Positions 35,936 to 62,236 of a stretch of 64,000 bases of DNA are shown here, piece after piece. The notes under the pieces were generated by a model. That model was not told the origin of the DNA. It saw nothing but the letters and a program-made list of their open reading frames with translations, and did not search any database. A program made the position numbers and the translations under genes. Source of the stretch: an uncultured Candidatus Rokubacteria bacterium (GTDB lineage Bacteria > Methylomirabilota > Methylomirabilia > Rokubacteriales > DASRDR01); the NCBI GenBank assembly GCA_963826115.1, contig CAWGVS010000007.1, positions 128,001 to 192,000 of the forward strand, written 5' to 3'. Positions within the stretch are counted from its first letter, which is position 1, and each line of letters begins with the position of its first letter.

Positions 35936-36201
35936 GGACCGCCGCGCTTCGAGCGGACCAGCTCGGTGAGCGTCCCGAGGGTCTCCAGGGCCTCGCGCGT
36001 GAGGTCGCGGGTCGCGTCGAATACGATTTCGAACTCGGTCTCGCACGCCACGATCACCTCGAGCAGCTCCACCGAGTCGAGCCAGAAGCCCGCCTCCGAG
36101 AGCGGCGTGGCCGAGCCCGCGGGATGAGGGGTCCGCGCCGGACCCGCCACCCGCTCGACGAGCGCCCGCGTCGCCTCGAGCACCGGGTCGGTCGCGCTCA
36201 C
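35932..36201 (-). CDS. Acyl carrier protein
   Basis: 89 aa with LDSVELLEVIVACETEFEI (phosphopantetheine Ser motif). GTG 36201 coupled to the upstream stop. Confidence 0.88.
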   Translation of the reverse strand: MSATDPVLEATRALVERVAGPARTPHPAGSATPLSEAGFWLDSVELLEVIVACETEFEIVFDATRDLTREALETLGTLTELVRSKRGGP

Positions 36202-37616
36202 CGAGCGGGCGCCCGCGCGAGGAGGCTGACGCACGCGAGACGGTCGGGCTTGCCGTTCGGCAGACGAGGCAGCGACGGGACGACCTCGAGCGCGCGGGGC
36301 CACGACCAGGGCGGGAGCTTGTCGGCCAGCCCGGTTCGCAGGGCCGCGACGGCCACCCCGGGCTCGCACTCGATGACCGCGCCGAACGAGCGGCCGGCCG
36401 GGCCGTCCAGCGGGACCACGACCGCCCCGGTGACCCCCGTCATCTCGCCGAGGGTCGCGGCGACGGCGGCGAGGTTCACGAGCCGACCCTCGCGCGTGCG
36501 GATGCAGTCGTCCAGGCGTCCGGCCAGGACGAGGCGGCCGTCCTCCCGGAGGGCGCCAACGTCCCGGGTCGGCCACCACCCCTCCACCTGGACTGGACGC
36601 TCCACGGCCGGGGGGAACCCGTAGCCCGCCATGAGCCACGGCGTCCGGACCCAGATGCGGCCCGGCTCGCCCGGGGCCGCCCGGGCAGCGGGATCGTCCC
36701 CGATGCGCACCGCCACGCCGGACAGCGGCCGCCCGACTGTTTCCGGCCGGACCTCGGCGGCCGGACCGTCGTCGGAGGCGATGAACGCCGTCTCCGTGGA
36801 CGAGTACGACTGGCGCAGCGGCACGCCGAACCGGGCGAGAAAGGCATCGCACACGGCACTCGGGACCAGGCTCGACACCAGGCAGAGGCGCGGCGCAACC
36901 GGGGGGCCGACGAGCGCGCAGCGCCCAAGCGCGTCGGCGAAGTGCAGCGATGCCCGCCAGCACGCGAACGCGGGCGAGGCGAGCGCGGCGAGCGCGGCGC
37001 GGTGATCGAGGGGATCGAGCAGGCCGAGCGCGCCGCCGAGCACCATCGACACGAGGAGGTAGTTGAGCCCCTGGGCCGAGGCGAGCGACGCGCCGATCAG
37101 CACGCCCTCGCCCGATCTCAGCGCGGCGGCCCGCGCCCGCGCTCCCGCGAGGAGAGCGGCCGTGGGCCGGTAGACGGCCCTCGGCCCACCCGTGGAGCCC
37201 GAGGTGAAGAGGACCACTCCCGGCCCCGCCAAGGGCACGAACGGCGGGGCGTTCATCGCCGGGCCCTCACCTGGCTCGTGGAGCAGGAGGGGCGCGAGAC
37301 CCGCCTCCTGGGCCGCGGAGGCGAGATGCCGCAGAGCGGGCGGCAGGATCAAGGGCGTGCCGTCGGGCACGGCCGGCGCGGTCCGCCAGGCGCGGACATC
37401 GGGCGGCAGCACCACCAGCGGGCCAGGGAGCGCGCTGAGCCCGACGAACAGCGCGACACCCTCCGCCGACGCCGGCAGCGCCGTCGCCACCAGCCCGCCC
37501 TGCTCCCCGAGCCGGCCGAGGACCTCTCCGCGCCACCGCCGCGCGAGCGCGTCCAGCTCGTCCGCCGACCACCAGCGACCGAGCGTGAACACGCGGGGCA
37601 TCGTCAGCGGCGACAT
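36198..37616 (-). CDS. ANL-family adenylate-forming enzyme (acyl-CoA/acyl-ACP ligase-like)
   Basis: LFTSGSTGGPR P-loop, YSSTE, TRDVG, GRLDD, LPRLPNGKPDR. Confidence 0.9.
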   Translation of the reverse strand: MSPLTMPRVFTLGRWWSADELDALARRWRGEVLGRLGEQGGLVATALPASAEGVALFVGLSALPGPLVVLPPDVRAWRTAPAVPDGTPLILPPALRHLASAAQEAGLAPLLLHEPGEGPAMNAPPFVPLAGPGVVLFTSGSTGGPRAVYRPTAALLAGARARAAALRSGEGVLIGASLASAQGLNYLLVSMVLGGALGLLDPLDHRAALAALASPAFACWRASLHFADALGRCALVGPPVAPRLCLVSSLVPSAVCDAFLARFGVPLRQSYSSTETAFIASDDGPAAEVRPETVGRPLSGVAVRIGDDPAARAAPGEPGRIWVRTPWLMAGYGFPPAVERPVQVEGWWPTRDVGALREDGRLVLAGRLDDCIRTREGRLVNLAAVAATLGEMTGVTGAVVVPLDGPAGRSFGAVIECEPGVAVAALRTGLADKLPPWSWPRALEVVPSLPRLPNGKPDRLACVSLLARAPAR

Positions 37617-37622
37617 GGGCGG

Positions 37623-37651
37623 ACTCTAAGGACGACGGGCGTTCGGGTCAA
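37623..37651 (-). promoter_or_regulatory. sigma70-like leaderless promoter of the adenylation/ACP/acyltransferase cassette
   Basis: TTGACC(37651-37646)-N17-TAGAGT(37628-37623)-N6-ATG. Confidence 0.7.
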
Positions 37652-38895
37652 GGCGCCGGCGCGTCCGCGCGTGGACCGCCGGTCACCCGGCCGCCCTTGA
37701 CGACCAGGAAGCGCGCCGGCAGCCCTCCGACTGCCTCGGCGAGCGTGGTCGCGTCGAGGACCACCAGGTCGGCCGGGGCGCCGACGGCGAGTCCGCGGGC
37801 GTCCCGGCCGAGGATCCGGGCCGGCTCGGTCGTCACCATGTCGAGCGCCGCCGCCATGTCGGCCGCGCCGCCCATGTGCGCGCCGACGACGAGGAGGTAC
37901 GTCAGGAGCAGGGGGTCGGCGTTGCCCGCGGGCGTGAAGGCGTTCTGGACGTTGTTCGTGGCGGCCGCCACGGTCACCCCGGCGGCGAGGAGCCGCTTGA
38001 TCGGCGTGAGCCCCCGGCGAACGTTCCGCGCGTCTCCGCGCCCCATGAGATAGAGGTCGGTCGCGGGCAATGTGATCACGGCGACCCCGGCCGCGTGGAG
38101 CCGGCGCGCGACCCGCGCCTGCTCGACGGCATCGCACGCCCCGAGCTCGGTGAGGTGGCCGACCGCGACGCGACCCTGCCAGCCGTGCCGCTCCGTCCGG
38201 TCCACGATGGCCTCCACGTGACGGTGCACCGGCTCGTCGGCGAAGTCGGCGTGGAAGTCGGCGGCGCAGTCGAACTCCCGCGCGAGGGCGAACACCCGGT
38301 CCACGTGCTCGGTGCCGTCCGTGTCGTTGTAGGGGCACCCACCGACCAGGTCGATACCGGCCCGGAGCGCCGCGCGCAGGAGGGGCTCGGTGCCCGGCGC
38401 CCGGAGGATCCCCTCCTGGGCGAAGGCGCAGAGCTGGAGGTCCAGGCGGTCTGCGTACTCGGCGCGGAGCGGCAGCACCGCCTCGACGCCGCGGAGGCCG
38501 ACGATCGGATCGACCTCGACGTGGCCGCGCATCGCCGTCGTGCCCAGCGCCACCGCGTGGTCGAGCAGGCGCCGGGCCCGCGTCCGGATGTCGTCGACGG
38601 TGAAGGCGCGCTTGGCCTCGGCGGTGACGCGGATCGCCTCCGCCAGGGTGCCCTCGCGGCTCGGCGTGCGCGAGAGGAGGTACGCCTTGTCCAGGTGGAC
38701 GTGGGCGTCCACGAAGCCGGGCACGACGAGCCGCCCCGCGGCGTCGATCCGCTGGCGCGCCGGTGTCCCGGCAAGGTCGCCGAGCGCCGCGATCCGCCCG
38801 CCGCGGACACCGACGTCGGCGAGCTCGCCGGCCGGCGCCGGCCGGCCCGCCGCCACGACGAGGTCGAAGGGCTCTCCGGAGTCCACCGGGCTCAC
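37648..38895 (-). CDS. Amidohydrolase, cytosine deaminase-like
   Basis: DAHVHLDK, GTTAMRGH, AFAQEG, FHAD, GH, NAFTPAG. Confidence 0.9.
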   Translation of the reverse strand: MSPVDSGEPFDLVVAAGRPAPAGELADVGVRGGRIAALGDLAGTPARQRIDAAGRLVVPGFVDAHVHLDKAYLLSRTPSREGTLAEAIRVTAEAKRAFTVDDIRTRARRLLDHAVALGTTAMRGHVEVDPIVGLRGVEAVLPLRAEYADRLDLQLCAFAQEGILRAPGTEPLLRAALRAGIDLVGGCPYNDTDGTEHVDRVFALAREFDCAADFHADFADEPVHRHVEAIVDRTERHGWQGRVAVGHLTELGACDAVEQARVARRLHAAGVAVITLPATDLYLMGRGDARNVRRGLTPIKRLLAAGVTVAAATNNVQNAFTPAGNADPLLLTYLLVVGAHMGGAADMAAALDMVTTEPARILGRDARGLAVGAPADLVVLDATTLAEAVGGLPARFLVVKGGRVTGGPRADAPAP

Positions 38896-38951
38896 TGGCT
38901 GAGGATACGCGACCCCGCGCGCGGTGCCGAGCCACGCGCCACCCGGACACC

Positions 38952-38980
38952 TTGACGGGGCGATCTCCGGCGTCTAGCGT
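38952..38980 (+). promoter_or_regulatory. sigma70-like promoter
   Basis: TTGACG(38952-38957)-N17-TAGCGT(38975-38980). Confidence 0.65.
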
Positions 38981-38998
38981 ACCGGCCACGAGCTAGCC

Positions 38999-41518
38999 AT
39001 GGACGCGGTCGTCTCGACGCTCCGCACCGTGTCGCTCTTCGCCGACCTCCCGCGCGAGGTGCTGGCCCGCCTCGTGAGCGAGTTCGACGAGCTGGACGTC
39101 GCCGCCGGCGAGACGGTGTTCTCGCAGGGCGACCCCGGGGACGCGCTCTACGTCATCGTGAGCGGGGCCGTCGAGGTGCGCGGCGAGCGCGACGGCCGGA
39201 GCGAGCGCGTCGCCGTCCTCGGTCCCGGGGACTGTCTCGGCGAGATGGCGCTCGTCACGGGCGACCCGCGCTCGGCCTCGGTCGTGACGCTGTCGGCGAC
39301 GCGGCTCCTCCGGCTCGACAAGGAGCGGTTCCGCGTCCTGTCGGACCGGCAGCCCGTCTTCCTCCGGGAGCTCGCGCGCGTGCTGTGCCGCCGCATCGCG
39401 CGGACGTCGGCGGACGTCGCCCACGCGCGCCGCGCCTACACGACCGTCTTCGACACGATCCTGGCCGGTGCCGAGCCCCCGGCCCGGCGCCTCCTCGACG
39501 TCCTGGCGGTGGCCAAGCGGGCCGACGCGGGGGTCCTGATCGCCACTCTCGGGGACGCCGGCCCAAGCATCGCGGCCGAGGTCGCCGCCCACCATCCTGC
39601 CCTGGTCTTCCGGGACGAGCGCGGGCGCTACGAGCTCCACCCCGAGTTCCGCGACCACGTCCGGCGGCGGCTCGGCGACGCGAACGGCGCCGACGGCACC
39701 CAGGACCTCCACGTCGCCCTCGCGACCGCGCACGGCGGCGGGGGCGCGTGGGCCAAGGGCGCGCGGCACTGGCTGGCCGCGGGCCGCTGGGACGAGGCGG
39801 CGCACGCGATCCGCAAGGCGCTGGCGTCCGGCACCCCGCCGACGGACGCGGAGCTCGAGACCTGGCTCGACCGCCTCCCCGAGGACGTGCTTCTCCAGGC
39901 CGACCTCGGTCCCGCGAAGGCGAGCCTCCTCGTCCGGACCGGACGCTCGGACGTCGCGGGGGCGCTCCTCGAGCGCGCGTTCTCGGGACGGCGGCTGGAC
40001 GGCGACGCGCGCGACCGCCTGGTGCGGAGCCTGGGCACTCTCTACGCGCAGCGCGGTCGCCCTGGGGGCGGGGCGGGCGGCCCGGCCGGACCCGGCGCGC
40101 CGCGCGCCGCGGCGACGCGAAAGGGCGGCAGCGCCCGGTGGGCCATCGGCCTCGCGCTGGCGGTCGCGATCGGCGCCGTCGTGCTCTGGATCCCGCCGGC
40201 CGGGCTCGAGCCGCGCGCGGTCCGCTTCCTCGCGGTCCTTGCGGCGGGCACGGTGCTCTGGGCGTGGGGCAGCTTCCCCGACTACGTGGTCGCCCTCGGA
40301 ATGGGCATGGCGTGGGTGCTCCTCCGCGTGGCGCCCACCGCAACCGCGTTCGGAGGGTTCGCGACGAGCACGTGGTTCCTGATGCTGGGCGTCCTCGGAC
40401 TGGGGGCGGCCCTCGCCCGCTCGGGGCTGCTCTACCGGATCACGCTCGTCGCGGTGCGACGCTTCCCGCCCACGTTCGTCGGGCAGACGGGCGCCCTCCT
40501 CAGCGCCGGCATCGTGTCGACCATCCTCATCCCCTCGGCCCAGGCACGGGTGACCTTCATGGGACCGGTGGTCCTCGGCCTGGCGGACACGCTCAAGTAT
40601 CCGCCGCGAGGCCGGGGCAGCGCCGGGCTCGCAATGGCCGCCTTCACGGGCTTCAACCTGGCGACGACGCTCTTCCTCACCGGGACGACAACGTGCCTGC
40701 TCGCGTGGCGGGTCCTGCCCGAGGCGACGCGGGCTCAGGTGACCTGGCTCGCGTGGCTCCAGGCCGTCCTCGTGCTCGAGGCGGTCAGCCTGGGCGCCGC
40801 GCTCGCGTGGATCGCCTGGCGCTACCGGCCGGCGGGACCGACCCCGGTGCGGGCGACCCTGCTCCACGCCCAGCTCCAGATGCTCGGCCCGCCCTCGCGG
40901 GACGAGTGGATCACCGGGCTGGTCGCGCTCGCCGTCGTCGCCGGCTGGATCACGCAGCCGTGGCACGGGGTCGATCCGGCGTGGCTCACGCTCGGGGCGC
41001 TCTGCCTGCTCCTGGCCATGCAGGTCCTCGACCGGGCGGCGCTCCAGGGCCAGGTCGACTGGGCGTTCCTGCTCTTCATGGGGATCGCCTTCAGCCTGGC
41101 CGACCTCGCCGCCCACGTCGGCGCGGACGCCTGGTTCGCGTTGCGCGCCCGCGCCGCGCTTGGCGACATCACGACGCCGGCGGCGGCCGTGACCGCCGCG
41201 GTGCTGATCACCATCCTGGTGCGCTTCGCGCTCCCGTGGCAGACGGCGGTGCCGCTCCTGACCGTGGCCCTGACGCCGTTCGTGGAGGCGGCGGGCGTGA
41301 GCCCGCTCATCGTGGCGCTGGTGGCGCTCAAGGCCGGGAACGTGTTCCTCCTGCCCCAGCAGAGCCCCACCTACCTGACGCTCTACTACGGCACCGAGGA
41401 GCGGGCCTTCGGCCATCGCCAGGTGCGCCCGTTCGCGTGGCTGTACGCGGCGGCCGTCCTGGCCGGCTTCCTCCTGAGCCTCCCCTACTGGCGCGCGCTC
41501 GGACTGGTCACGGGCTGA
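38999..41518 (+). CDS. cNMP-binding domain + MalT-like helical region + SLC13/DASS-family permease fusion
   Basis: cNMP domain (FSQGDPGDALY, LGEMALVTGDPRSASV), middle segment YELHPEFRDH..HWLAAGRWDEAA..WLDRLP, DASS hallmarks (SGLLYRI, IPSAQAR, LFLTG, WITQPWHG, VDWAFL, PQQSP). Confidence 0.85.
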   Translation: MDAVVSTLRTVSLFADLPREVLARLVSEFDELDVAAGETVFSQGDPGDALYVIVSGAVEVRGERDGRSERVAVLGPGDCLGEMALVTGDPRSASVVTLSATRLLRLDKERFRVLSDRQPVFLRELARVLCRRIARTSADVAHARRAYTTVFDTILAGAEPPARRLLDVLAVAKRADAGVLIATLGDAGPSIAAEVAAHHPALVFRDERGRYELHPEFRDHVRRRLGDANGADGTQDLHVALATAHGGGGAWAKGARHWLAAGRWDEAAHAIRKALASGTPPTDAELETWLDRLPEDVLLQADLGPAKASLLVRTGRSDVAGALLERAFSGRRLDGDARDRLVRSLGTLYAQRGRPGGGAGGPAGPGAPRAAATRKGGSARWAIGLALAVAIGAVVLWIPPAGLEPRAVRFLAVLAAGTVLWAWGSFPDYVVALGMGMAWVLLRVAPTATAFGGFATSTWFLMLGVLGLGAALARSGLLYRITLVAVRRFPPTFVGQTGALLSAGIVSTILIPSAQARVTFMGPVVLGLADTLKYPPRGRGSAGLAMAAFTGFNLATTLFLTGTTTCLLAWRVLPEATRAQVTWLAWLQAVLVLEAVSLGAALAWIAWRYRPAGPTPVRATLLHAQLQMLGPPSRDEWITGLVALAVVAGWITQPWHGVDPAWLTLGALCLLLAMQVLDRAALQGQVDWAFLLFMGIAFSLADLAAHVGADAWFALRARAALGDITTPAAAVTAAVLITILVRFALPWQTAVPLLTVALTPFVEAAGVSPLIVALVALKAGNVFLLPQQSPTYLTLYYGTEERAFGHRQVRPFAWLYAAAVLAGFLLSLPYWRALGLVTG

Positions 41519-41530
41519 TCGCGCGTCCGC

Positions 41531-41893
41531 CTAGCCCGACCGGCCGAGCTCCTCGCGGATCTGGAAGGCGTAGCGCACCGACTTCATCGCGAGGCTCCCG
41601 CCCATGTAGAGGCCGATGTCGAGGGTCTCGGCGAACTCTGCGTCCGTGGCACCCTGGAGGAGCACCTCCTCCACGCGGTGCTCGATTCATTCCCAGCAGT
41701 TCGTCGCCACCGCGACCGCGAGCGCGGTCAGCTCCTTGTGCTTCTTCGAGAGGGCGCCGTCGGCGAAGACCTCGCGCCCGAGCGTCTTCATGGACTTCGC
41801 GACCTTCATCGGCGAGCGCGCGATCGCGCCGTCGAGGTGGGCCCGCCGCGCCTGGCGGCCGGCCCGGTCGAGATGCGGGGTGATGGGATCCAT
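41531..41893 (-). CDS. Carboxymuconolactone decarboxylase/AhpD-family protein with in-frame UGA (CxxU), probable selenoprotein
   Basis: AGGAGG SD. DGALSKKHKELTALAVAVATNCWE-TGA(41689-41687)-IEHRVEEVLLQGATDAEFAETLDIGLYMGG continues to TAG at 41533-41531. Confidence 0.85.
41655..41673 (-). other. Candidate bacterial SECIS hairpin
   Basis: UGGAGGAG-GUG-CUCCUCCA, a perfect 8-bp stem starting 13 nt after the UGA, with the apical loop starting GU. Confidence 0.65.
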
Positions 41894-41919
41894 CGGGAGC
41901 CTCCTTTCGGTGTCGTGCC

Positions 41920-42792
41920 TCACGTTGCAGGCTTCGGGGGGATCGGATCGACGCCGAGAATCCAGCCTTCGCGGCGCGCCGCCGCGGGGAGGCGGCTCCG
42001 CTCGGTCAGCGGCCAGCATCCCGACGCCATCGTGACGGCGGCCGCGAGGGCGTCGATCGCGTGGTCGGAGCGCGCCGCGCGCTGTCGGTGCACCGCGGAG
42101 AGTCGGATCTCTTGGCGGCGCAGCTCGCGGACGTGGCGCCGGCGCGCGCCGGCGTCGCTCTTGACCACGCGCCCGAGGGCCAGGCGCGGCCAGATCTCGG
42201 CCACGACGAGCGGCGCGCCCGCGGGATCCTCGAATGGCCAGACGCGCACGGCGGGCGCCTGCCGCTTCAGCTCGGCGAGGGCCGCGATTCCCGTGATGGC
42301 GGCCTTCCCGACCTGACGGGCTCCCACGAAGCCATAGCGACCGTTCGCACGCCGCAGCGCGCGGAGCGGCGACTCGGCCCCCTGCGTCTGCCGCAGGCGC
42401 TCGACGCCTCGGCGGGTCCGCCGATCCCCGCGACCGCCGCACCTCCGCCACCACTCGCCGCACGCGTCGATGAAGGCGTCGGCCGCCACGAGGGACGCCA
42501 TGTGGGCGAGCAGCGCCGAGAAGTCCCGCATGCGCAGGCGATCGAGGAACGGGACGGCGTAGGAGAACGGAAAATCCAGGCCGACCAGCGTCGGCACTCC
42601 GTCCCCGGCGAGCGCGGCGAGCCAGCCCACGAGCTCCTGGCGATCACGGCCCCCGGCGAGCGCGGTCACCGCCCGACCGCCCGCGCCCAGCTCGACCACG
42701 CACGCGACGATGGCCTCCCGCTGCGCCCTCGGATCGCGCGCCCCCGACCAGTCGATGGCGACGAATCGCGCGGGGACGGACGAGGCTGCCAC
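41920..42792 (-). CDS. DUF429-like predicted RNase H-fold nuclease
   Basis: VAIDWSGA, VGLDFPF, EIWP, DHAIDA, EGWI. Start GTG 42792. Confidence 0.7.
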   Translation of the reverse strand: MAASSVPARFVAIDWSGARDPRAQREAIVACVVELGAGGRAVTALAGGRDRQELVGWLAALAGDGVPTLVGLDFPFSYAVPFLDRLRMRDFSALLAHMASLVAADAFIDACGEWWRRCGGRGDRRTRRGVERLRQTQGAESPLRALRRANGRYGFVGARQVGKAAITGIAALAELKRQAPAVRVWPFEDPAGAPLVVAEIWPRLALGRVVKSDAGARRRHVRELRRQEIRLSAVHRQRAARSDHAIDALAAAVTMASGCWPLTERSRLPAAARREGWILGVDPIPPKPAT

Positions 42793-42800
42793 CGGCTCCG

Positions 42801-43472
42801 TCAGTCCAGGATCGCGATGGCGCGCGCCGGCGCGCCGTCGCCGCCCTCGAGCCGGAGCGGGAGCGCGACGAAGCGGACGCGCTCGCGACCGATCCGGTCG
42901 AGGTTCACCAGGTACTCGATGACGCCGATCCCGGCGGGGAAGAACGTGTGGTGCGTCGCCCACTCCTCGGGGGCGATCGCGCGCCGGCGCCCGGTGACGA
43001 GCTCGCGCACCGGCTGGTCCGGCGGGTAGTCGTAGCCGACCGCCTTCACCCCGCGCGCCACCAGCCAGCGGCAGGCCGACAGGCTCGTCCACGGCGCCTC
43101 GGTCCAGAACTCGAGCGTCTCCCAGGACCGCCGCCGCGGCCAGTCGGTGCGGAGGAGCGCGATGTCGCCCGGCCGCACGTGCTGGCCCCGCGCCTCGAGG
43201 TCGGCGGCCTCGACCGCCGTGTTCGCGCCGACGTGGGTCAGGTCGACCACCGACGCCTCGCCCACCCACGTCTCGAGGGGCATCTGGTCGACCGGAAGGC
43301 CGCCAGGGAGGAAGTGGTTGACGCCGTCGCAGTGGGTGAAGCCGTGGCCGGGCATGGCCAGCCGGCTCGAGCGGAAGGGATGGGACGGGTCCTCGAAGTT
43401 CGAGACGACGGTCACCTCGGTCTTCCAGCGGACGTGCGCGCGGATCGGGAGCGAGAGGTCGACGATGGTCAC
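42801..43472 (-). CDS. Cyclase / kynurenine formamidase-family metal hydrolase
   Basis: DLSLPI, HGFTHCDG, LLRTDW, EYLVNL, DGAPARA. Confidence 0.9.
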   Translation of the reverse strand: MTIVDLSLPIRAHVRWKTEVTVVSNFEDPSHPFRSSRLAMPGHGFTHCDGVNHFLPGGLPVDQMPLETWVGEASVVDLTHVGANTAVEAADLEARGQHVRPGDIALLRTDWPRRRSWETLEFWTEAPWTSLSACRWLVARGVKAVGYDYPPDQPVRELVTGRRRAIAPEEWATHHTFFPAGIGVIEYLVNLDRIGRERVRFVALPLRLEGGDGAPARAIAILD

Positions 43473-43475
43473 CGC

Positions 43476-43982
43476 TCAGCCTCCGAGCCCGACGGCGAGG
43501 TGGCGCGCGACCTCGGCGGGCGTCAGCCGCTCCACCGGATCGCCGGCCGCGACCTCGCCCGGGAGGAGAACCCGCGCGTACACGCGGCTCCACCCGGGGT
43601 GCCGCGTCTCGGACACGCGCGAGTACGCGCCGTCGAGGAACGCCGGCCGGACGGTCAGGCAGGGACTGGTGAACCGCGTGATCTGCACGAGGACTTCCTC
43701 CCCCAGGCGGTAGAAGTCGCCCGGCTGGACGTGGGGCCAGTCGAACCCCGACACGGTGAGGTTCTCGCCGAGCGTGCCCGGCTCGACGGGGTGGCCCTCC
43801 GCCTGGAGGTCCTCGATGCGCTCGAGGGAGAAGAGGCAGAGCGCGCGATCCGGCCCCCCGTGAAGCTCTCGGTTCCGGTGGGCGTCGCCCTCGAGTCCCG
43901 AGCGCAGCACCCGGGCGCGCGGGACGGGACGCTTCGGCACCCCGCCCGGCGACACGTTGATCTGGACGATGCGCCCGGTCAT
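43476..43982 (-). CDS. MOSC domain protein (YiiM-like)
   Basis: SPGGVPK, GLEGD, HGGPDRA, GENLT, TSPC, YARVL. Start ATG 43982. Confidence 0.92.
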   Translation of the reverse strand: MTGRIVQINVSPGGVPKRPVPRARVLRSGLEGDAHRNRELHGGPDRALCLFSLERIEDLQAEGHPVEPGTLGENLTVSGFDWPHVQPGDFYRLGEEVLVQITRFTSPCLTVRPAFLDGAYSRVSETRHPGWSRVYARVLLPGEVAAGDPVERLTPAEVARHLAVGLGG

Positions 43983-43987
43983 CCGGG

Positions 43988-45043
43988 TCAATCGAAGACG
44001 AAGACGCCCTTCCCCGTGGTCTGGGTGTCGAAGAGCCGGTAGGCGTCGGCGGCCTGCGGGAGCTGGAAACGGTGGGTGAGGAGCCGCGGGAGCGGCACCC
44101 GGCGCTTGACGATGAACCGGGCGCACTCCGCCTGGATCAGCGTGCTGAAGGTCCACGAGGCGTGGATCGTGAGCTGACGCCGCAAGAGGTCCGGGCTCAC
44201 GTCGAAGGTCACCTGGTTCCCCTCGCCGACGAAGCCCACCCGGCCCCAGGTCCGGGTGGCCCGCGCCGCCGCCCGGCGCGCGTCGGGATGTCCCGTGCAG
44301 TCGAGCGCGGCGTCCACGCCTTCGCCGTCGGTGAGGGCCTTCAGCGCCTCCACCACGTCCGTCGCGCCGGGATCGATCACCCCGTCGGCGCCGAGCTCCC
44401 GGCCGAGCGCTCGGCGCTCCGGACCCACGTCGACCGCGATGACGCGCGCGCCCATCGCCACCCCCAGCATCGTCGCGGACAGGCCGACCGGCCCCTGGCC
44501 GAAGACGGCGAGCGTGTCGCGGCCGGACACGTCGAGGCGGCGCAGCGCCTGGTACGCGGTCCCGGTCCCGCAGGAGATGGCGGCGCCCTCCTCGAACGAG
44601 AGTTCGTCGGGCAAGGGCACCAGGGTCGAGACGGGCACCGTCATGTACGGCGCGTGACCGCCGTGCCCCGTGATCCCGTACACCACGATCCCGCGGGGAC
44701 AGAGCTGCGCCCACCCGGCCCGGCAGTGCTTGCACTGCCCGCAGCCCTTGTAATGGTGGTTCATGACGCGCGCGCCGACGGGCGCGTCGCGCTCGAGCAC
44801 GCCGGGCCCGCGCTCGGCCACGACCCCGCAGGGCTCGTGGCCGGCGATGCAGGGGCCGCCACCGCCGCCGAGCCCGAGGCTCTGGGCCGCCCCGCCGCTC
44901 CGCGACGCGCGATAGGGGTGGAGGTCGCTCCCGCACATGCCCGAAGCCTTCATGGCCAGCACGACCTCGCCCGGCCCGGGGCGGGGATCGGGGAACTCCC
45001 GGAGCTCCAGCTCGCGCTCGCCGAGAAAGACGACTCCGCGCAT
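43988..45043 (-). CDS. Zn-binding dehydrogenase (MDR)
   Basis: CGSDLH, GHE, CGQCKHC..C, GQGPVG. Confidence 0.93.
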   Translation of the reverse strand: MRGVVFLGERELELREFPDPRPGPGEVVLAMKASGMCGSDLHPYRASRSGGAAQSLGLGGGGGPCIAGHEPCGVVAERGPGVLERDAPVGARVMNHHYKGCGQCKHCRAGWAQLCPRGIVVYGITGHGGHAPYMTVPVSTLVPLPDELSFEEGAAISCGTGTAYQALRRLDVSGRDTLAVFGQGPVGLSATMLGVAMGARVIAVDVGPERRALGRELGADGVIDPGATDVVEALKALTDGEGVDAALDCTGHPDARRAAARATRTWGRVGFVGEGNQVTFDVSPDLLRRQLTIHASWTFSTLIQAECARFIVKRRVPLPRLLTHRFQLPQAADAYRLFDTQTTGKGVFVFD

Positions 45044-58718: not shown

Positions 58719-59461
58719 CCGCGCGGCCCCCCGAGGTCCCCGAAGAGGTACTGACAGAGGGCGACCGCGGCGACGCCGGCCGACTCCGCGCGGAGGATGC
58801 GGGGTCCCAGGCTCACGACGCGCGCGCCGGCGCCCTCGGCCGCCGCCACCTCCTCGGCGGTGAAGCCGCCCTCGGGCCCGATCAGGAGCAAGAGGCGGGC
58901 GGGCGCGCCGGCGTCCGCCGCCGTCCGGGCGAGCGCTCCGCCCCCACCCTCCCACAGGAGCCACGCGGCGTCGTGCGCGCCGATCTCGCGCGTCACCTCG
59001 GCGAAGGTCCGGATGGGCTCGATGACCGGGACCACCACCCGCCCGCACTGCTTGACCGCCTCGCGCGCGATCCGCTCCCAGCGCGCCGGGCGGGCCGCCG
59101 GCCCGCCCGCGGGCCGCGCCACGACGCGCGCGGTCTCCACGGGGACGATCCGCGCCACGCCGAGCTCCGTCGCCTTCTGGACGAGCCAGCTCATCCGATC
59201 GCCCTTCAAGACCGCCTGGGCCAGCGTGATCGCGCACGGCGACTCCCGCCGGGGCTCAGCCCGCGCCTCGATCGCGCCCCATCCGCCGGCGGCGTCGAGC
59301 GCGACGAGCCGCACCGTGTAGAGACGTCCGCTGCCGTCCGTCGCCTCGACGACCGCGCCCGGCCGGAGCCGGAGTACCCGTCGGAGGTGGTGCGCCTCGT
59401 CGGCGTCGAACCGGACGCGGTCCGCGCCGACGGCGGCGGGGCGGACAAAGACCAGGGGCAC
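58715..59461 (-). CDS. rsmE: 16S rRNA m3U1498 methyltransferase
   Basis: HLRRVLRL, KATELGV, EAVKQCGR, IGPEGG, LGPRILRAE. Confidence 0.97.
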   Translation of the reverse strand: MPLVFVRPAAVGADRVRFDADEAHHLRRVLRLRPGAVVEATDGSGRLYTVRLVALDAAGGWGAIEARAEPRRESPCAITLAQAVLKGDRMSWLVQKATELGVARIVPVETARVVARPAGGPAARPARWERIAREAVKQCGRVVVPVIEPIRTFAEVTREIGAHDAAWLLWEGGGGALARTAADAGAPARLLLLIGPEGGFTAEEVAAAEGAGARVVSLGPRILRAESAGVAAVALCQYLFGDLGGPRG

Positions 59462-59497
59462 GCGCTCACCCGGTCCCGGCGCGCCGAGCCATGGCGC

Positions 59498-60415
59498 TCA
59501 GCCGCCCCGGCGCAGGAGCACGGCCGCCCATCCATCCGCCTCGGCAACCTCGACGAGCCAGCACCCCGCGGCCGCGAAGGTGCCGGACACGATCGGCACC
59601 TCGTGCGCGAGGAGACCGCCCGCGATCAGGCTGCCGCCCGGCGTCACGAGGGCCGCGAGCGCGGGCGCGAGGGTGACGTGGGCCGCCGCCAGGAGATTCG
59701 CGAGGACGAGCGGCACGGCGGGGCCCGCCCAGGCGTCGGCGGCGGCGAGCGCCGCGTGGACGCGGTCCGCCACGCCGTTTCGCCGGGCGTTCTCCTCGGT
59801 CGCGGCAACCGCGTCGGGATCGACGTCGATGGCGTCCACGCGCGGGACGCCGAGCCGGGCCGCGGCGATCGCGAGGATACCCGAGCCGCAGCCGACGTCG
59901 AGCACGGGACGCGCGGACGTCGCCGCGAGCGCCCGATCGAGGAGCTCGAGACAGCTCCGGGTGGACCCGTGGCCGCCGGTGCCGAAGGCCCGCCCCGGCT
60001 CGATCAGCACGACCACGCGGCCGGCCGCGAGCGCGGGCGGCGGCGTCTCCCAGGGGGGGCACACGAGCAAGCGCCGCCCGACCGGGATCGGCCGGAAGTG
60101 GGCGCGCCACGCGTCCGCCCACGGCTCGTCGGGCAAGGGCGCGACGTCGACGCGCGCCGCCGCGCCCGGGAGCCCGAGGGCGGCGAGCTCGCCCAGGTAG
60201 TCCCGGAGCGTCGCCGCCCGCGCCGGCGCGTCGGTGCCCGGCGGGAAGAAGGCGCGGAGCGCGGCCGCGTCGCCCGCGGCCTCCTCCACGACGCCGACCG
60301 CCCCCAGCTCCCACAGGCGGTTCGTCACGGCCTCCGTCGTCTCGGCGGCGTCGGCGCCGAGCGTCACCGTCAGCTCCCAGTACTCGGCGGCCGCCGGGGC
60401 GGCGGGCTTCGGCAT
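59498..60415 (-). CDS. prmA: Ribosomal protein L11 methyltransferase
   Basis: W...W..HF.P, EPGRAFGTG.H.ST, LDVGCGSGIL, LANL. Confidence 0.95.
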   Translation of the reverse strand: MPKPAAPAAAEYWELTVTLGADAAETTEAVTNRLWELGAVGVVEEAAGDAAALRAFFPPGTDAPARAATLRDYLGELAALGLPGAAARVDVAPLPDEPWADAWRAHFRPIPVGRRLLVCPPWETPPPALAAGRVVVLIEPGRAFGTGGHGSTRSCLELLDRALAATSARPVLDVGCGSGILAIAAARLGVPRVDAIDVDPDAVAATEENARRNGVADRVHAALAAADAWAGPAVPLVLANLLAAAHVTLAPALAALVTPGGSLIAGGLLAHEVPIVSGTFAAAGCWLVEVAEADGWAAVLLRRGG

Positions 60416-60430
60416 GTCTCGCGCCGTCGG

Positions 60431-60856
60431 CTACTCGCGCCGCTCGAGGTGCATGCGGAGGGCCCGCCCGCCGGAGGTCACGTGGGTGCCCTCGAGCACG
60501 GTCGGCTTCACGAGCTTGAGCGTCACGTGGAGCGCCTCCGGGGTGATGAACTCCACGGTCACCGTGGGGTCCACGACCGTGACGTCGACGGCGACGCGGG
60601 CGACCTTGTCGGCCGTCACCCCGTAGGTCCCGTCCGCCTTCCACTTGGCGACCCCGGGCGCGCTCGAGGCGTCCTGGCGCACGTTCCGGAGGGTCAGGAC
60701 TCGCGACGGCATGTGACGGGGGCTCGGCACCTCCGTGGTGCCTTCCCAGCGGCCGGTCAGGATCGCCGCGACGTCCACCTCGGCGCCGGCCGGCGCAGCC
60801 AGCAGGATCCACCCGGCGAGCGCCATGCTCCAGGCCGCGAGCCGTCCGCGTCTCAT
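60431..60856 (-). CDS. Secreted hypothetical protein (beta-rich)
   Basis: Signal peptide ending AGA-E, LTGRWEG, SD-like GGAAAGGA. Confidence 0.7.
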   Translation of the reverse strand: MRRGRLAAWSMALAGWILLAAPAGAEVDVAAILTGRWEGTTEVPSPRHMPSRVLTLRNVRQDASSAPGVAKWKADGTYGVTADKVARVAVDVTVVDPTVTVEFITPEALHVTLKLVKPTVLEGTHVTSGGRALRMHLERRE

Positions 60857-61015
60857 CGTCGTCCTTTCCCGCCCCGGCGGGCGCGCCGGCGGCGGGCCGG
60901 CCGTCTGACCCTACTCCGCCCCGGCCGGCGACGCCAGGCGGGCCCCAGCCGCGGCCGGAGCGCCGCGAAGCACGAGGCCAACCGGGTCGATCCTGTAGAA
61001 TCGCTGAGGCGTCTC

Positions 61016-62236
61016 ATGCGATCGGCCACGTGGCGCGCGCACTTCGACCGTCTCTTGGCTCCGGCCGAGAGCCCGCCGTGGTCGAACCGGATCACGAACG
61101 CAGCCCTCATGGCGCTCATCCTCGTGAGCGTCGTGGCGGCCGTGCTCGAGACGGTCGACGACCTCCCGCCGCGGATCACCTGGCTCCTCCACCTGGCCGA
61201 GGCCTTCGCGGTGGCGGCGATGGCCGTCGAGTACGTGCTCCGCGTCTGGGCGGCGCCCGAGCGCGAGGCCATCGGGACGCGCGAGCCCTGGCAGGCGCGG
61301 CTCCACTACGCGACCTCGTTCGTCGGGCTCGTCGACCTCTTCGCCGTCCTCCCGGCCCTCGTGGCAATGGTGGTCCCGATCCCCCCGGACGCCCTGCGGC
61401 TCCTGCGGGTGCTGCGGCTCCTCAAGCTCGTCCGCTACACGCCGGCGCTGACGCTGTTCGCGGCGGTGATGCGGAACGAGAGCCGCGCGCTTCTCGCGAC
61501 GCTCCTGGTCGTGATCGTGCTCCTGGTCCTCGAGGCGTCGATCATGTACGTCCTCGAGCGCGAGGCGCAGCCCAAGGTCTTCGCGAGCATCCCCCACGCG
61601 ATGTGGTGGGCCATCGTGACGATCGCGACGGTCGGCTACGGCGACATGTTCCCGATCACGGCCCTGGGCAAGGTCTTCGGCGGCATGGTCATGGTGATCG
61701 GGATCGCCGTCTTCGCGGTGCCGGCCGGTATCCTCGCCACCGGCTTCGCGAGCGAGATCCGCAAGCGCGACTTCGTCGTCACCTGGCAGACCGTCGCCAA
61801 CGTGCCGCTGTTCACCGGCCTGGACGCGGCGCGGATCGCCGAGATCGCCCGGCTGCTGAAGCGCCAGGTGGTCCCGGCTCAGTTCGCCGTGGTCCGACGC
61901 GGGGATCCGGCCGACGCGATGTTCTTCATCATGTCCGGCGAAGTCCAGGTCGACATCGCGCCGACGCCGGTCCGCCTGGGCCGCGGCCAGTACTTCGGCG
62001 AGATCGCCCTGATCCGCGACACGGTGCGAACGGCGACGGTGAGCACGCTCGCCGAGTGCCAGCTCCTGTCGCTGGACGTGGCCGACTTCCGGCGGCTCCT
62101 CGAGAACAACCCCAGCCTCAAGGCGACCATCACCCGGACCGCCGAGGAGCGTCTCGGCGTCCTGACGGGGACGGCCACGACGGGGCATGCGGGGCTCACG
62201 CCGGGCGATCCGCCCGCCGGCCGGCCGCGCGCCTGA
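61016..62236 (+). CDS. Cyclic nucleotide-gated potassium channel (6TM + cNMP domain)
   Basis: S4 RLLRVLRLLK, selectivity filter TVGYGD, cNMP motif FGEIALI..RTATV. Start ATG 61016. Confidence 0.95.
   Translation: MRSATWRAHFDRLLAPAESPPWSNRITNAALMALILVSVVAAVLETVDDLPPRITWLLHLAEAFAVAAMAVEYVLRVWAAPEREAIGTREPWQARLHYATSFVGLVDLFAVLPALVAMVVPIPPDALRLLRVLRLLKLVRYTPALTLFAAVMRNESRALLATLLVVIVLLVLEASIMYVLEREAQPKVFASIPHAMWWAIVTIATVGYGDMFPITALGKVFGGMVMVIGIAVFAVPAGILATGFASEIRKRDFVVTWQTVANVPLFTGLDAARIAEIARLLKRQVVPAQFAVVRRGDPADAMFFIMSGEVQVDIAPTPVRLGRGQYFGEIALIRDTVRTATVSTLAECQLLSLDVADFRRLLENNPSLKATITRTAEERLGVLTGTATTGHAGLTPGDPPAGRPRA

Follow-up and report, generated by a model that had tools for sequence, protein, structure and literature searches.

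Can the activity of an anion carrier be set directly by a cyclic-nucleotide sensor built into the same polypeptide, and through what kind of connection? This question is raised by one gene in a 64,000-nucleotide stretch of DNA (the window) from contig CAWGVS010000007.1 of an uncultured Candidatus Rokubacteria bacterium. The gene encodes an 839-aa protein, P0001, in which three parts share one open reading frame (ORF): a domain binding cyclic nucleotide monophosphates (cNMPs), a region resembling the winged-helix domain (WHD) and arm of the regulator MalT followed by helices that resemble tetratricopeptide repeats (TPRs), and a permease of the DASS/SLC13 family. Judging from the sequence, its most likely function is that of a cNMP-regulated anion exchanger, whose substrate and gating mechanism we infer. 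We estimate at roughly 60% the probability that P0001 is a homodimeric anion transporter of the DASS fold, from the Na+-independent exchanger side of that family, regulated post-translationally by its N-terminal cytoplasmic cNMP sensor. The features of the gene are as follows.

38999..41518 (stop codon included), + strand: whole gene of the fusion protein P0001, 839 aa (cNMP-binding domain, WHD-arm-TPR module, DASS permease), an intact ORF
38999..39352, + strand: cyclic-nucleotide-binding (CNB) domain, residues 1-118 (Pfam match 34-115), from PF00027 and a beta-roll in the model
39239..39283, + strand: phosphate-binding cassette GEMALVTGDPRSASV, residues 81-95, from the family alignment
39353..39469, + strand: long C-helix, residues 119-157, a predicted dimer interface and one continuous helix in the AlphaFold2 (AF2) model
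39440..39976, + strand: region homologous to the MalT winged-helix domain and arm, residues 148-326 (approximately MalT 253-434), from profile, hhalign and fold
39977..40054, + strand: TPR-like helices that close the cytoplasmic module (up to residue 352), seen as helical hairpins in the models
40058..40126, + strand: flexible Gly/Pro/Ala-rich linker, residues 354-376 (23 residues), the sole segment of the full-length model with a predicted local distance difference test (pLDDT) score below 50
40130..41515, + strand: permease domain of the DASS/SLC13 fold, exchanger-like, residues 378-839, from PF00939, profile and fold
40529..40549, + strand: first hairpin-tip motif IPSAQAR, residues 511-517, aligned with IPSNSAR of LaINDY and IPSVSAR of DiT1
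41225..41251, + strand: second hairpin-tip region FALPWQTAV, residues 743-751, compared with FASNTASAA of VcINDY and ..SG(T/A)AH.. of LaINDY and DiT1

The reading frame runs through 839 codons without an internal stop, and the GC content stays at ~75% throughout the gene region, with no compositional break at the domain junctions. A Pfam scan of P0001 assigned cNMP_binding (PF00027) to residues 34-115 (E 4.3e-25, 88.0 bits against a cut-off of 27.5) and Na_sulph_symp (PF00939) to residues 384-800 (E 2e-27, 96.8 bits against a cut-off of 27). Since both scores lie far over their cut-offs, the two matches are well beyond chance. At E ≤ 0.1 no P-loop and no helix-turn-helix (HTH) family was found anywhere in the protein, and a regular-expression search for the Walker A motif gave zero matches, in agreement with the initial annotation of this locus, which had been made from the sequence alone. 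Residues 140-380 matched no Pfam family except for a sub-threshold TPR_12 hit (E 0.086). The full-length AF2 model (mean pLDDT 84.6, pTM 0.64) places the parts in the order beta-roll, helix 119-157, winged helix 160-213, hairpins up to residue 352, linker 354-376 and membrane domain. No promoter or terminator was found in a scan of both strands of 38700-41900, and no clear Shine-Dalgarno sequence was seen upstream of the ATG.

The same architecture recurs widely. A word-indexed search returned 186 proteins at E ≤ 0.001; among the best 120, which were listed, more than 60 are full-length homologues (29-96% identity) that sit on independent contigs and span 100% of the length of P0001. In all, the number of full-length homologues on independent contigs exceeds 100, spread over several phyla. 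Their database names are 'SLC13 family permease' or, in JGI records, 'di/tricarboxylate transporter/CRP-like cAMP-binding protein'. The 6.24-Mb genome of the organism itself (12 contigs) encodes three paralogues, i.e. the window gene and copies on contigs C3 (38% identity) and C6 (~31%). All three carry CNB and DASS domains according to Pfam, and the middle module was recognized in the C3 and C6 copies with hhalign probabilities of 99.3% and 88.7% against the module profile described below. On contigs taken from one genome per species, full-length copies were found in Rokubacteria/Methylomirabilota, Binatia, several deltaproteobacterial lineages, Eisenbacteria and Hyphomicrobiales. They are also present in six records of cultured Paenibacillus, including one complete chromosome (two of the six were checked by Pfam).

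Two candidates for a permease-less architecture composed of CNB domain and module, P0053 and P0056, were rejected as frameshifted calls, since their C-terminal parts match an off-frame translation of permease DNA; P0098, P0129, P0156, P0194 and P0264 look like fragments or similar cases. In six short forms (629-644 aa) the sensor helix is separated from the permease by no more than 50-68 residues. In a quick permease-domain tree (midpoint-rooted, built without an unfused outgroup and with several long branches) the short forms are scattered, so that at least three changes are needed, and one of them, P0097, is nested in a clade of 830-aa proteins with 100% SH-aLRT support. Repeated loss of the module would be the simpler reading, although the tree does not settle the order of gain and loss. 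Some copies are damaged: those of loci L028 and L029 have one in-frame stop each in the permease part, and that of L094 (2419-4987) matches in pieces in different frames. These three copies are either pseudogenes or the result of sequencing errors.

An intact phosphate-binding cassette of a CNB domain is defined by the pattern Gly-Glu ... Arg-Ser/Thr-Ala. The initial annotation had reported such a cassette in P0001, and the conservation of GEMALVTGDPRSASV bears this out: G81, E82, A84 and L85 are invariant in a 56-sequence family alignment, and M83, R91, S92 and A93 are at least 90% conserved across the 56 homologues. By sequence, therefore, the cassette of P0001 is intact. The closest solved relatives of the sensor domain are regulatory subunits of protein kinase A (PKA) and CRP-family proteins, such as mycobacterial CRP (E 5e-23 to 1e-21).

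The prediction of a homodimer from two copies of residues 1-345 gave a score of 0.44, against 0.00 for the best control; among proteins of solved structure, 20 of 30 that are pairs of one chain reach the mark set for this score, as does one of 23 that are single chains. The runs agreed in at least 82% of contacts, with a partner pLDDT of at least 78. The predicted interface is symmetric and extends along residues 115-154, with cross-contacts to cassette residues 83 and 86-87 of the other copy. Thus, the cytoplasmic part of P0001 is predicted to dimerize in a CRP-like manner. DASS proteins are described as obligate homodimers in the available part of PMC7553777, and the predicted sensor dimer is consistent with this arrangement.

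For the middle part, residues 126-384 of P0001 were aligned with the matching stretches of 24 homologues (alignment A2, 25 sequences). Against the Protein Data Bank (PDB) the A2 profile matched E. coli MalT (8bob_C) at E 1.2e-14 in a single stretch (profile positions 22-178 to MalT 252-409) and also PH0952, a TPR sensor of the STAND class (E 1.6e-4), and its distal third matched consensus TPR proteins. hhalign paired residues 148-326 with residues 253-434 of MalT of E. coli K-12 (probability 96.6%, E 6e-10). With an AF2 model of the module alone (pLDDT 88.0), Foldseek returned MalT first (E 1.7e-3) and PH0952 second (E 8.2e-2), with nothing at E ≤ 0.001. After re-alignment with VIA-align, MalT again ranked first (Z 14.0, root-mean-square deviation [rmsd] 2.2 Å over 149 residues, model 18-182 to MalT 247-412), ahead of PH0952 (Z 11.3) and the winged-helix regions of the plant NLRs RPP1 and Roq1 and of CED-4 (Z 8.5-10.7), so the clear separation of MalT by fold came from VIA-align and not from Foldseek E values. 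The Pfam 38.1 family PF25873 (WHD_MalT) is precomputed on 45 of the best 120 of the 186 homologues.

In the part of PMC4381067 available to us, residue 278 of MalT is assigned to the winged-helix domain, the arm-sensor polypeptide begins at residue 336, and the arm is seen to alternate between contact with the ATPase and contact with the liganded sensor. Together with these domain limits, the profile, hhalign and fold comparisons identify the module as a winged helix and arm homologous to those of MalT, with a few TPR-like hairpins behind them. The initial annotation had seen this likeness from short strings of residues, which lie where it had placed them (e.g. YELHPEFRDHVRRRL, residues 211-225, starting at nt 39629), and the fold comparison that it had proposed as a check points the same way. 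The repeat part is less distinct: homologue P0065 exceeds the TPR_12 cut-off (34.6 against 30.1 bits) and longer homologues show clearer TPR matches than P0001, and structural matches of the module to TPR proteins have Z values of 8-9, a range common for helical repeats.

The AAA, NB-ARC and STAND NTPase families are absent from P0001 at Pfam E ≤ 0.1; thus no ATPase core composed of nucleotide-binding and helical domains (NBD-HD) was recognized, and the 147 residues ahead of the MalT-like region are occupied by the CNB domain and its helix. Nor did Pfam detect a soluble effector domain (LuxR/GerE HTH, BTAD etc.), the C-terminal domain being the permease. An exhaustive search of 1.84 billion representative sequences with the module profile gave 33,223 proteins at E ≤ 0.001, of which 14,744 passed E ≤ 1e-10 and 70 passed E ≤ 1e-30. 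Forty-eight of the 148 best matches to new proteins, taken in listing order from those of at least 600 aa up to a size limit, were scanned with Pfam. Nine belong to the fusion transporter family itself and the other 39 are STAND-type proteins: 27 with BTAD, three with LuxR/GerE, and one each with a class III cyclase, TIR plus NB-ARC, and CHAT, while six show only AAA, NPHP3_N or TPR families. A recognized P-loop NTPase family is present in 13 of the 39 (E ≤ 1e-5), and the module match in these proteins typically starts near residue 250, as in MalT. Outside the fusion family, the best relatives of the module by sequence are STAND regulators. A few relatives, such as P0199 and P0244 (both of LuxR type), show the module without a recognizable ATPase. 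These two combine the WHD-arm module and a full TPR_MalT region with only ~20-70 residues before the module and no recognizable ATPase. They are possibly natural ATPase-less relatives of MalT or truncated gene calls, and ATPase-less copies of the module may perhaps not be unique to the fusion transporter family.

The permease had been annotated as an SLC13/DASS membrane domain from ~40135, and its start at approximately residue 378 (nt 40130) agrees with this; the PF00939 match spans positions 6-436 of the 472 in the profile. Single-sequence matches to solved DASS proteins are weak (DiT1, E 4.4e-4; VcINDY, E 3.5e-3). A membrane-domain profile made of 22 sequences from the fetched loci of the fusion family matched the exchangers DiT1 (E 6.1e-38), LaINDY (4.3e-34) and DiT2.1 (5.9e-34), compared with 1.6e-16 for the cotransporter VcINDY and 1e-13 or weaker for human SLC13 proteins. 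In a Foldseek search with the full-length model, DiT2.1 came first (E 1.4e-14, TMt 0.85, rmsd 3.1), and LaINDY, NaCT, VcINDY and NaS1 each reached a probability of 1.00; the fold is that of the DASS family. Across the 22 diverse members the membrane domain retains a mean column identity of 51% and 18 invariant columns.

Cotransporters of the DASS family form their Na1 and Na2 sites with two Ser-Asn-Thr (SNT) motifs, whereas exchangers carry a conserved Arg at Na1 (LaINDY Arg159) and a conserved His at Na2 (LaINDY His392), according to the available part of PMC7553777. R517 of P0001 aligns with the Na1-surrogate Arg, a residue equivalence that is based on the HMM alignment, and this position is basic in all 22 family members (16 R, 6 K). 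Compared with VcINDY, the first SNT motif reads S-A-Q and the second L-P-W, which is not the cotransporter pattern. By these sequence criteria the permease sides with the Na+-independent DASS exchangers rather than with the cotransporters and probably has no need of Na+ at the Na1 site, but it is not canonical for either clade. As to the substrate, our default guess for this clade is a di- or tricarboxylate-like anion. The N-terminus of the DASS protein VcINDY is cytoplasmic, and it is at the N-terminus of the DASS domain that the sensor is fused.

To characterize the genetic context in other clades, the flanking ORFs of 30 full-length loci, some with short flanks, were clustered, representatives were checked by Pfam, and matches to catalytic domains were separated from receiver-only ones. 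Of the 30 loci, 10 have a class III cyclase (REC-cyclase or CHASE2-cyclase) no more than 4.5 kb from the fusion gene (L013, L015, L017, L018, L019, L021, L022, L023, L042 and L043). A count of 17 loci, obtained from a single-linkage cluster, was rejected because it mixed receiver-only proteins with cyclases. In 13 loci a gene for a PF04392 substrate-binding protein lies on the same strand and stops immediately ahead of the fusion gene, and in eight it is preceded by a gene for a metallo-beta-lactamase-fold protein (two of each were Pfam-checked). A recurring cassette was observed, composed of a REC-cyclase, the metallo-beta-lactamase-fold gene, the PF04392 protein and the fusion, often with a CHASE2-cyclase downstream; it is found in L013, L015, L017-L019, L021-L023 and L042, i.e. 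in Binatia, deltaproteobacteria and Eisenbacteria. We speculate that the metallo-beta-lactamase-fold gene encodes a cNMP phosphodiesterase. The cyclase genes adjoining homologues support the reading as a cyclic-nucleotide-regulated transporter, which the initial annotation had put forward, and regulation itself is stated here as a probability.

In the genome of the organism (all contigs), 26 domains exceed the Pfam cut-off for class III cyclases, and many of them lie in open frames of 1,050-1,190 aa. A search of the same genome with the fusion protein gave 12 matches, most of them through the cNMP-binding domain. For a 6.2-Mb genome, this cNMP signalling set is unusually rich. The window itself holds an ORF of up to 1087 aa (58973-62236, + strand) with Ion_trans (residues 706-931, E 4.3e-30), Ion_trans_2 and a C-terminal cNMP_binding domain (967-1046, E 1.1e-15). 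Its domain content is that of a putative cyclic-nucleotide-gated channel-type protein, apparently with a long N-terminal extension, and its start is provisional.

We propose that the conserved fusion design probably lets cAMP or cGMP control transport directly. In such a transporter the long C-helix of the CNB domain would pair with that of the second subunit, as in CRP, and lead into a winged-helix/arm/short TPR module of MalT-type STAND descent, from which the ATPase would have been lost or in which it was never present. Binding of cAMP or cGMP would move the C-helix, and this shift would re-orient the winged helix and arm, comparable to the effect of cAMP on the DNA-binding domain of CRP and to the arm toggle in MalT. 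The TPR end would then touch the permease on its cytoplasmic side, or a partner protein, in a different way, and transport would be switched on or off. A more specific version, which we hold tentatively and consider rather unlikely, is an ATPase-free STAND switch: the CNB domain would replace the NBD-HD, and the signal that flips the MalT-type arm from one contact to the other (sensor domain or TPR/permease surface) would be cNMP binding rather than ADP/ATP exchange. The DASS elevator would thereby be gated directly, possibly with a second ligand at the arm-TPR site.

Several observations weigh against the regulated-exchanger reading. The disordered Gly/Pro-rich linker of 23 residues argues against rigid mechanical coupling of sensor and permease and favours a docking mechanism. 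The dimer score may echo the resemblance of the sensor to CRP-family dimers of known structure, which would deprive it of its value as independent evidence. The cyclase-linked loci are mutually related, so the figure of 10 in 30 reflects few independent events, and none of the three paralogues of the window's genome has a cyclase nearby: contigs C7 and C3 gave none, and the nearest one on C6 lies ~70 kb from the paralogue there. The NCBIfam family TIGR00785 ('dass') gives 106.2 bits against a cut-off of 198.6, which marks the permease as a divergent DASS member. The Asn of both SNT motifs is missing, the position of the exchanger Na2 His holds Val in P0001 and aliphatic residues across the family, and the second hairpin tip varies by subfamily (FALPWQTAV, LVVRDDPAV, LVFTSFLAV). 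With motifs this atypical, neither a dicarboxylate substrate nor even transport as such can be taken for granted. In addition, neither a CNB-DASS fusion nor PF25873 was the subject of any paper found in a literature search, judged by titles and the beginnings of abstracts.

The same motif losses, together with the score below the curated DASS cut-off, speak for a transceptor or membrane-anchored scaffold, in which the DASS domain would transport nothing and would act as an anchor or ligand sensor, with the TPR end recruiting partners in a cNMP-dependent way; protein binding is indeed a common role of TPR modules. We nevertheless consider this quite improbable, as the membrane domain is well conserved, the entire DASS fold is kept, a basic residue occupies the Na1-surrogate position throughout the family, and motifs that are conserved within each subfamily fit differing substrates better than decay. 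A different arrangement would be a two-input gate, whose arm-TPR part binds a second small ligand or a partner, possibly the PF04392 protein or the cyclases, so that transport needs a cNMP and a second signal. In the available part of PMC4381067 the arm-sensor polypeptide of MalT forms the site where the inducer binds with high affinity, and the arm switches from partner to partner, which would suit such a gate, as would the retention of the module in most of the fusion family and the position of the PF04392 gene immediately before the fusion. However, the TPR part has few repeats compared with the ~370 sensor residues of MalT, and the scattered short forms show that the module is dispensable for some members. 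Proteins of the PF04392 type are normally periplasmic and, if this one is too, it would be on the wrong side of the membrane. On balance we regard a two-input gate as unlikely. Finally, the idea that misassembly or a read-through gene call is all that joins the three parts retains a vanishingly small probability: no support for it was found, although P0053 and P0056 at first resembled alternative architectures. Since these proved to be frameshifted calls of the same gene, and since the fusion recurs in full-length homologues on independent contigs, in three same-genome paralogues that all have the CNB, module and DASS parts, and in Paenibacillus isolates, an assembly chimera, which the initial annotation had allowed for, is excluded.

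Having set out the case for a cNMP-regulated exchanger, we turn to the genes that surround it in the window, which include the following.

37648..38895, - strand: cytosine-deaminase-like amidohydrolase, divergent from the fusion gene (Amidohydro_3, E 4.8e-32)
41687-45043, - strand: downstream block composed of a CMD-family fragment, a PF04199 'putative cyclase', a MOSC domain protein and a Zn-dependent alcohol dehydrogenase (Pfam)
36198-37616, - strand: AMP-binding (acyl/aryl-CoA ligase-like) gene adjoining the amidohydrolase (Pfam)

The amidohydrolase scores under the cut-offs of the NCBIfam cytosine-deaminase subfamilies (e.g. NF005748, 286.7 against 438 bits), so it is described as cytosine-deaminase-like and not assigned as a cytosine deaminase. 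It adjoins the fusion gene in L010 (91% identity), L011 (81%), L090 (92%), L093 (84%) and L094 (~50%). In L091 (76%) it is not adjacent, with no match in the 618 upstream bases, and L092 was left out of the count because its contig begins inside the fusion gene. Adjacency was thus found in five of six informative other loci of the window's clade, compared with none of the 28 full-length loci of other clades. The CMD-family match of the downstream block (E 1.1e-4) is just under the Pfam cut-off, and the PF04199 'putative cyclase' is presumably a kynurenine-formamidase-like enzyme. The downstream block is kept with the fusion down to ~50% identity (L094), and none of the window-clade neighbours appears in the 28 full-length loci of other clades. 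The AMP-binding gene was found in full length among the fetched loci only in L010 (62% identity), with a weak partial match in L045 (25% over 240 residues). Synteny of a whole block in one lineage is weak evidence for a specific functional link to the amidohydrolase; of what the initial annotation had said of this gene, its divergent orientation and its enzyme group hold, while the suggested link amounts to synteny in a single clade. A metagenome relative, L093 (1-1523), contains the amidohydrolase, ~130 bases and then only the last 168 codons of the fusion (residues 672-839); most of the fusion gene seems to have been deleted there in a syntenic context.

Each part of P0001 has well-known counterparts. 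The DASS exchangers LaINDY and plant DiT1/DiT2.1 are the best profile and fold matches of residues 378-839. In terms of the available part of PMC7553777, they share with the fusion family the hairpin IPS..AR and the basic residue that stands in for Na+ at Na1. The fusion family differs from them in lacking the motif-1 Asn and the conserved Na2 His and in its variable second hairpin tip; the solved relatives matched the permease part only, and no fused sensor is mentioned for them in the portions of the literature examined. The winged helix and arm of MalT, PH0952 and AfsR-like ATPase-TPR-BTAD proteins are homologous to the module, and their first TPRs probably correspond to its TPR-like helices. 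Unlike these STAND proteins, P0001 lacks both the NBD-HD ATPase and a DNA-binding or other soluble effector domain, its repeat region is much shorter, a cNMP-binding domain stands where they have the ATPase, and a membrane permease serves as the output.

With CRP/FNR proteins P0001 shares the cNMP-binding domain and long C-helix (E ~1e-21 to MtbCRP) and, according to the model, a dimer along the C-helix that touches the cassette of the other subunit. Whole CRP-family chains align over 229-243 columns of the full-length model (TMt 0.55-0.60, rmsd 9.6-14.5 Å), which places the P0001 winged helix topologically where the DNA-binding domain of CRP sits. Sequence likeness to CRP/FNR ends at approximately residue 142, and the winged helix beyond it is MalT-like by sequence; Pfam found no CRP-type C-terminal HTH in P0001, and NCBIfam CRP/FNR matches end at or before residue 142, with scores well short of the family cut-offs (e.g. 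46.1 against 266 bits). MloK1-type channels and fusions of major facilitator superfamily (MFS) transporters with cyclic nucleotide-binding domains (CNBDs) follow the same concept of a cNMP sensor fused to a membrane transport protein. MFS-CNBD fusions are listed in a 2023 review among fused regulatory domains of largely unknown function, and the available part of that review does not mention a CNB-DASS case with a STAND module (PMC10710835). Compared with these systems, the carrier of P0001 is a DASS elevator, the sensor is N-terminal, and a STAND-derived module lies between the two.

Sensors fused to bacterial transporters are therefore a known theme, and the CNB-DASS architecture is already annotated automatically in public databases. 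The remark in the initial annotation that the architecture was not known to it as described agrees with the literature search as far as papers are concerned, but not with these database records. The unusual element is a STAND winged-helix/arm lever without an ATPase, placed between a cNMP sensor and an elevator transporter. The literature search found no fused allosteric regulator described for the DASS family; if the ATPase-free switch is true, it would be the first, and the winged-helix/arm lever would be a portable transducer. For the STAND field, a lever that works without an ATPase would put to the test the notion that the switch is really toggled by the arm. Experiments are feasible, as full-length homologues are present in cultured Paenibacillus species. 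A direct cNMP switch on a DASS carrier would provide a simple bacterial model of elevator transporter regulation, and it would add a transport output to bacterial cAMP/cGMP signalling, in an organism with 26 cyclase domains.

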